This document shows positions 61,101 to 61,290 of a stretch of 64,000 nucleotides of DNA, in pieces (positions within the stretch are counted from its first letter, which is position 1; every line of letters starts with the position of its first letter). The DNA is from an uncultured Bacilli bacterium (GTDB lineage: Bacteria > Bacillota_I > Bacilli_A > RF39 > UBA660). The notes beneath the pieces are model-generated. The model did no database searches. It had not been told where the DNA came from and saw nothing but the letters and a program-made list of their open reading frames with translations. The stretch lies in assembly GCA_910587745.1 (NCBI GenBank), contig CAJUNE010000001.1:15439-79438 (forward strand), given 5' to 3'. The position numbers were made by a program, and so were the translations under genes.

Positions 61101-61290
61101 GGTTATAAGTTTAATGGCAGACCAGTTGCTCTTATGAAAAACTTATGACTTTTTAAGTAATTAATAATGGTGGTTATAAGTTTTGTAGTAGACCAGCCGT
61201 TCTTGTGTTAAACTTATGACCTACTTTTATCTGTATAAACAGGGTTATAAGTTTAGTAGCAGACCTCCTTGACGACCAACAAGTATTTCT
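61101..61290. repeat. three tandem units (71-bp period) of an att-like ~50-bp imperfect palindrome ggttataagttt-N26-aaacttatRacc; the third unit is the attR junction
   Basis: Units start at 61101, 61172 and 61243. Units 1 and 2 are complete palindromes about 80% identical to the reconstructed attP. Unit 3 has only the left arm plus core, followed by host SBP sequence. Confidence 0.75.

Follow-up and report, generated by a model that had tools for sequence, protein, structure and literature searches.

The window analysed here, a stretch of 64,000 nucleotides from an uncultured Bacilli bacterium, carries an integrated element of ~13.9 kb (47319–61266, forward strand) within a gene for an NMT1/THI5-type ABC substrate-binding protein (SBP). 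The two parts of the split gene lie on the reverse strand, the N-terminal part (...ILVGRQ-G|) at 61269–61718 and the C-terminal part (|G-MPALNFLN...) at 46764–47316. Rebuilt across the element, the gene encodes a protein 100% identical to P0121, an intact SBP of 334 aa recorded on 15 contigs, so that the target is also known without the element. In-silico removal of the element restores the target exactly; judged from these sequences, the boundaries are real and the insertion is conservative and precise.

The element encodes a rolling-circle-type Rep, a Macro-domain protein, an HTH repressor-like protein, a Pif1 helicase, a small serine recombinase (198 aa; 58640–59236, forward strand), which belongs to the element family and is not linked to the array described below, and a large serine recombinase (LSR); among the eight element open reading frames (ORFs) scanned, none matched a capsid or conjugation Pfam family. 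The LSR (520 aa; 59490–61052, forward strand) has Resolvase, Recombinase and Zn-ribbon domains (PF00239, 6.4e-19; PF07508, 4.5e-22; PF13408, 2.2e-12). Directly upstream of its gene lies a 32-aa ORF, MKIVNIFNEDGKTLQEIIEFHLIEYCLNAKNN (59343–59441, forward strand), kept down to 60% LSR identity and conserved in loci L101, L191, L199 and L213; it may specify a small protein that assists or regulates the LSR, perhaps a directionality factor. A perfect 12-nt tandem repeat, ACTGATGAACTT, present three times at 58336–58371 within the ORF at 57871–58497, encodes TDELTDELTDEL.

Identical copies of the LSR occur on 23 contigs from several hosts, and an element with an identical array is joined to seven different host attB arms, several of these hosts coming from samples with neighbouring run accessions (SRR32560163, SRR32560165 and SRR32560173). 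This suggests that the element has spread recently. BLAST searches with the LSR and array region gave no phage match, and the plasmid matches were limited to short TndX-like stretches from Enterococcus.

Directly after the LSR stop codon is a terminator-like hairpin with a T-run (61050–61086, forward strand; −16.1 kcal/mol, z −7.6), and beyond it a tandem array of three 50-bp units on the forward strand. U1 (61101–61150) and U2 (61172–61221) are complete attP-like sites; spacers of 21 bp follow each (61151–61171 and 61222–61242), the first of which, on direct reading, is not kept in a 98%-identical lineage. U3 is present as its left arm and centre only (61243–61268), breaking off after 26 bp into the SBP gene on the reverse strand: its left arm (61243–61266), the dinucleotide CC (61267–61268) and the host half TTGACGACCAACAAG... 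together form attR (61243–61290). At the other end of the element, attL (47308–47342) consists of the host half GGCATTCCT (47308–47316), CC (47317–47318) and the P' arm TGTTCTTGTACAAAACTTATAACC (47319–47342), and the attP rebuilt from attR and attL is GGTTATAAGTTTAGTAGCAGACCT-CC-TGTTCTTGTACAAAACTTATAACC.

The earlier note on this DNA had described two complete, about 80% identical attP-like palindromes that precede the true attR with 71-bp periodicity, each a 50-bp palindrome with a 21-bp spacer, and all of this is borne out. Units are built as 24 + 2 + 24 bp and start at 61101, 61172 and 61243, 71 bp apart in both intervals; U1 matches the rebuilt attP at 39/50 positions, U2 at 41/50, and the two match each other at 39/50, while the arms of U1, U2 and U3 are symmetrical at 15/24, 16/24 and 19/24 positions. 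The exact 71-bp period is particular to the window's element, unit spacing in the relatives measured being 62–74 bp. To our knowledge, the elements that carry serine integrases, which are textbook single-site enzymes, have one attP each; the note had likewise taken a single attP as the norm, against which three units stand here and two in most relatives. Copy number is constant, all contigs with an identical LSR carrying the same three units. What the note lacked is the decisive feature: the units differ in their central dinucleotides, which lie in the same register and read GT in U1 (61125–61126), GC in U2 (61196–61197) and CC in U3.

All three units open with the 12-mer GGTTATAAGTTT. Allowing at most one mismatch, this 12-mer has five matches in the 64 kb, where 1.12 are expected and five were reached in 0 of 100 shuffles; they are the three unit starts, the right arm of U2 and, inverted, attL at 47331–47342. 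Because the matches are confined to att sites, the array is not a dispersed repeat. We accordingly rejected a REP- or MITE-like element, a genome-wide REP-like repeat being what the note had named as the finding that would overturn its reading: five of five matches in the window fall at att sites, and the element-free host loci L186–L188 show only attB. Tandem Repeats Finder does not report the array, to which it is blind since the spacers are unrelated.

The position of the crossover can be read from integrants in which a single P' arm sequence meets three different host halves. The attL/attR pairs are GGCATTCCT-CC-TGTTC / GACCT-CC-TTGACG in the window, GGCATACCG-CC-TGTTC / GACCT-CC-TTTTCT in L013/L002 and GGCATACCA-CC-TGTTC / GACCT-CC-AGTTCT in L018/L004, and CC alone is common to the partners. 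This shared CC occupies positions 25–26, the exact centre of the 50-bp unit, and on the evidence of these junctions the crossover is at the unit centre, a 2-bp dinucleotide.

Read on the SBP coding strand, the centre corresponds to codon positions 1 and 2 of the bracketed residue in the conserved motif G-R-x-[G/A/T]-G-M-P. A CC centre reads there as GGN (Gly), GC as GCN (Ala) and GT as ACN (Thr), the last being the predicted target codon for U1. The Gly version of attB is GCTGGCATTCCT-CC-TTGACGACCAAC, the Ala version (from L186) GTGGCATACCA-GC-ACTACGGCCAGC and the Thr version ...CC?-GT-ACTTCTACCAAC. In the window the host codon is Gly (GGA) and the crossover lies at U3, with U1 and U2 left whole beside attR. 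Among relatives with at least 55% LSR identity, every right-end junction read falls in the same codon of NMT1-type SBP genes.

One contig, L003 (SRR32560173_10505, 20 kb), carries the element joined at another unit to a host with another residue. Over 11,708 bp it is 100.000% identical to the window (49490–61197); identity stops immediately after the GC of U2, and the SBP gene of another species follows, 71 bp nearer to the LSR and with no U3 at that end. The host part is 98.4% identical to the empty site L186, GGCATACCA-GC-ACTACGGCC, whose codons CGT AGT GCT GGT ATG read R S A G M, and element and host share an overlap of 6 nt, ACCAGC. The truncated host protein ends ...GRSAGLLQNL*, matching the prediction for U2. 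Since an overlap of 6 nt cannot give an assembly chimera, the junction, read at the sequence level, shows that this very element has crossed over at U2, on one 20-kb contig, the exact U2-junction protein likewise being found on one contig. The Ala lineage is itself abundant (P0394 is recorded on 605 contigs), and its sister lineages have Gly.

The L003 contig begins ~350 bp short of its attL, for which we predict the sequence GGCATACCA-GC-CGTTCTTGTGTTAAACTTATGACC-TACTTTTATCTGTATAAACAG-GGTTATAAGTTTAGTAGCAGACCTCCTGTTCTTGTACAAAACTTATAACC-AATTTAATTCC. As GC is palindromic, the known polarity rule implies that the U2 centre should not fix orientation; a single orientation was seen at the U2-type junction, and an Ala junction of the opposite orientation is predicted to read GTAGACCA-GC-TGGTATGCCACTTC.

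Two relatives provide corresponding cases for GT. One, the P0056-type element (LSR 60% identical to the window's), has an array of the form [GT][CC]; in L213 and L216 its CC unit adjoins Gly-host DNA, and its GT unit was used with another host in three samples (L214, L215 and L217), where the junction reads ...CCGATAG-GT-ACTTCTACCAACTA. The other, the P0008-type element (LSR 69% identical to the window's and 62% to that of P0056), shows nine junctions at CC and, in L220, a junction at GT. One host arm, ACTTCTACCAACTA, is common to the GT junctions of both elements; it reads G R S T on the coding strand, and the six intact orthologues of the Thr-host SBP have EILVGRSTGMPALNF, with the motif EILVGRSTGMP. 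The truncated SBP fragment of L215 is recorded on eight contigs, and a separate empty Thr-type site occurs in another species (L189: GGCATTCCT-GT-ACTTCTTCC). The junctions show GT units in use by two relatives; by analogy with them, we infer that U1 would serve the window's element in a Thr-codon host.

Counted by distinct host arms, CC has ~31 junctions, and GC and GT have one each. In three element lineages an extra unit has served for crossover, always in a host with the matching codon, and in every non-CC case the host codon, known independently, matches the unit used. These proportions can be set beside variation at the crossover codon, where 120 close homologues of the SBP have G (115), A (3) or S (2), and representatives at 50% identity have G (81), S (4), T (1) or Y (1). 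Gly therefore stands at this position in ~93–96% of homologues, in rough agreement with the 2/33 host arms joined at non-CC units. Ser codon variants exist among the homologues, and a unit matching them was not found.

The earlier note had proposed searching other LSR-carrying genomes for the same array, and such a search finds extra units in most lineages examined. Elements whose LSRs are 57–98% identical to the window's occupy the same SBP codon in dozens of hosts, and in most lineages over this range the interval from the LSR stop codon to the junction unit contains one or two further complete units. The centres of these extra units are GT, GC or AC only, never CC; in one sub-family the centre switches (GT in L029, GC in L110 and L112, AC in L032) with the arms nearly unchanged. 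Compared over their inner arms, extra units agree with their own junction arm at 8.6/12 positions and with junction arms of the other arm-type group at 5.5/12; such tracking is expected if the cognate LSR reads them. Comparison of the 100% and 98% lineages shows faster divergence in the spacers than in the units. An extra unit is lacking in L027, L038 and L042 and degenerate in L040 and L114, and AC-centred units had no partner among the junctions read. In a separate observation, an element with a 59%-identical LSR (L035, 2299–2400) occupies the same codon in the opposite orientation, its LSR adjoining the C-terminal SBP half; its centre is GG in the orientation of the unit.

Left ends of integrants joined at non-CC units are predicted to carry the right half of the unit used together with the remaining full units. 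A look-up through the Rep protein returned left ends of CC type only, and a regular-expression search over all fetched loci gave 18 left ends, 18/18 of them CC. Scans of viral_contigs had 0 hits, whether the query was the intact U3 attP or an inter-unit stretch from either of the two relatives; looking up the predicted C-terminal Ala-host fragments yielded contig-end fragments with intact attB and no integrants.

Together these observations lead us to propose that the array probably provides three alternative attP crossover sites for the element's own LSR, which differ in their central dinucleotides and would widen the element's host range. All three units present arms that the LSR should bind, as their likeness to the rebuilt attP suggests, and a staggered cut followed by religation would occur at the 2-bp centre, GT in U1, GC in U2 and CC in U3. 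It is an established rule for serine integrases that recombinant products are ligated only if the attP and attB overhangs match, and each unit would therefore fit a different target variant: a Gly host would be entered by crossover at U3, an Ala host at U2 and, we expect, a Thr host at U1. Whichever unit is used, the array would be split between the two ends of the element and excision should rebuild it, so that the device would be inherited intact as more hosts became enterable. Different centres should also prevent LSR-mediated deletion between the units. The element would probably pay for the array in futile synapsis between attB and non-matching units and, at the palindromic GC, in lost polarity control. 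A selective benefit of the array is our inference, and since non-Gly hosts make up only ~5–7% of those sampled, that benefit may be modest.

The proposal has to be weighed against readings in which the extra units do not normally cross over. They could be accessory or decoy binding sites for the LSR, acting in synapsis, direction control, enzyme titration or a block to read-through, in which case a non-CC centre would merely stop recombination; their constant position between the LSR stop codon and the junction unit, the great majority of junctions at the CC unit and the variation of the centre among close relatives, as if it were unread, would all fit. We nevertheless think this unlikely as the whole account, because crossovers have occurred at extra units in three lineages with the host codon matching each time, because in a low-G+C sequence the centres are GT, GC and AC rather than the A/T-rich dinucleotides that drift would favour, and because the spacing varies and three lineages manage without an extra unit. 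The earlier note's suggestion of decoy or accessory sites fails in its pure form on the natural crossovers, and an accessory role could coexist with that of alternative attP. That note had also raised scars of serial tandem integration followed by deletion, and a related possibility is that the units are neutral leftovers of such integration or of local attP duplication, with no present function. An identity of ~80% between units does resemble an old duplication, the extra unit of L040 and L114 looks decayed, and the same gene does accumulate further LSR elements (L002/L013). Yet a complete P-P' site belongs to the excised form alone, and a scar would therefore be hybrid; a mere 21 bp separates the units; the layout recurs across LSRs of 57–98% identity with arms that track the cognate junction arm; the spacers diverge faster than the units; and the units are used in nature. 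We regard neutral leftovers as very improbable and, on the same grounds of full P-P' units, 21-bp spacers and a layout recurrent across the clade, rejected accretion scars left by tandem elements or CIME-like remnants.

Two further readings assign the palindromes to another activity altogether. That they form a res-like site for the small serine recombinase, for example in resolving multimers of the excised circle, draws on the conservation of this recombinase in the element family and on the resemblance of three subsites to the res of Tn3 and gamma-delta. As attL and attR show, however, the units carry the arms of the LSR's own attP, all units measure 50 bp, unlike res subsites, and the observed crossovers join units to attB, at the first, second or last unit according to the host. 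Nor do the two features co-occur as the earlier note's proposal of small-recombinase substrates would have it: in L038 the small recombinase is present and an extra unit is missing, and in L040 there is an extra unit but no small recombinase within 10 kb. We give a res-like role very little credence. Still less do we credit a role as RNA hairpins, that is, terminators or structured RNA in the 3' untranslated region of the LSR gene. Each complete unit can indeed fold (−12.7 and −13.7 kcal/mol; z −2.6 and −3.4), which upholds the note's remark that a transcribed unit could form a hairpin, but pairing is limited to the outer 12 bp, the terminator-like hairpin just upstream is much stronger, and a site bound by two LSR subunits would have to be palindromic. 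Rfam offers no credible match, its sole match being to MIR444, whose score of 22.6 bits falls far below the gathering threshold of 110.

How do three alternative attP sites compare with known systems? Like the Bxb1 and phiC31 attP x attB systems, the window's element has the corresponding enzyme domains, an imperfect-palindrome attP of ~50 bp and a matching central dinucleotide; those systems have one attP, whereas it has three in tandem with different centres and its relatives have two. In every respect examined other than the number of attP sites, the element reads as a genuine LSR attP/attB module. Which att sites pair is determined by core dinucleotides, and these are modular (Durrant 2022, PMC10083194; Colloms 2014, PMC3936721). 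Engineered orthogonal att pairs follow the same principle, with one integrase for which the core dinucleotide alone sets the partner (Colloms 2014, PMC3936721; Bxb1 GT/GA landing pads; Kp03 in PMC10083194); these are laboratory designs, whereas the centres in the window appear to have evolved, on one element, and map to Gly, Ala and Thr codon variants. Multi-targeting LSRs of the DUF4368 clade, TndX/TnpX-like (Durrant 2022, PMC10083194), also widen the insertion sites of one recombinase, but do so by relaxed specificity over many genes; the window's LSR keeps to one codon of one gene family, with breadth coming from DNA sites. It was not placed among these enzymes, as it has no Pfam match to DUF4368 and its junctions lie in one SBP codon.

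Three adjacent sites for a serine recombinase are likewise found in res of Tn3 and gamma-delta. There, only site I crosses over, the subsites differ in size and the reaction is intramolecular, whereas the units in the window are equal in size and each appears able to cross over with attB. In phages that depend on XerCD, the compatibility of the central regions of phage and host sites decides integration, as for CTXphi on dif1 versus dif2. That system differs in its use of host tyrosine recombinases and one site per phage variant, with no known array. In the full-text literature searched, no natural multi-attP case was found, only engineered multi-attP designs and tripartite ICEs with three different recombinases; the phrase 'multiple attP' is absent from a large LSR survey (PMC10083194).

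A direct-repeat scan downstream of 77 distant LSRs (29–44% identity) gave 15 hits against 9 in an in-gene control, and L050 alone was convincing. This element, whose LSR is 39% identical and of a different clade, inserts at the start of a gene encoding M-x-H-N-F-K-G..., and a full extra palindrome, TTTTTATCACCAACGGTAATCGGTAATGTGCTTACTATTAGTGATAAA, lies 59 bp before its junction unit (~11600–11700); its relatives L051, L118, L059 and L052 have the junction unit only. The multi-attP layout may extend beyond one clade. A wider and more speculative view, which we hold to be possible though rather doubtful, is that serine-integrase elements in general use tandem attP arrays with different centres to extend their host range, a device so far overlooked and moulded by an arms race. 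Hosts would evade insertion by mutation of the crossover codon from Gly to Ala or Thr, which would be enough to block ligation, and elements would answer with attP duplication and a retuned centre. The view takes its cue from the fast switching of centres among close relatives between GT, GC and AC and from the extra full unit in the unrelated clade of L050.

Serine integrases are major tools of genome engineering, and their strict dinucleotide match is usually seen as limiting where an element can go. A natural element appears here to bypass that limit through DNA rather than protein. If the proposal of alternative attP sites is right, the element can enter species with Gly, Ala or Thr at the target residue and forms a natural counterpart of engineered orthogonal att pairs; a 2-bp polymorphism in a host gene can then be a barrier to a mobile element, and one that can be overcome. 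Pipelines that predict one attP per LSR from one junction may miss functional sites, and arrays of this kind would be a source of orthogonal site sets for one integrase that are ready-made and already validated in nature.

The SBP gene itself attracts other insertions. A second hot spot lies ~45 codons downstream of the first, at ...GDFVNLFE|PNAT... (P0391–P0507; L002, 13786–15276; L013, 1111–2817), where many orthologues are cut and continue into foreign tails, among them LSVMIITHLYYQK, LSVRE and HSV; on contig SRR32634113_6302, two further LSR genes (496 and 568 aa) lie around the SBP gene. The gene seems to be a landing strip for several families of LSR element. Beside the split gene in the window, the host gene at 61840–62631 (forward strand) matches PF03496, a family of ADP-ribosylating exotoxins, in hits precomputed for identical contigs. 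Finally, the 90%-identity cluster of P0525–P0539, which holds the Thr-host SBP fragments, also lists ABC ATPase proteins of 248 aa, which looks like an oddity of database clustering rather than biology.
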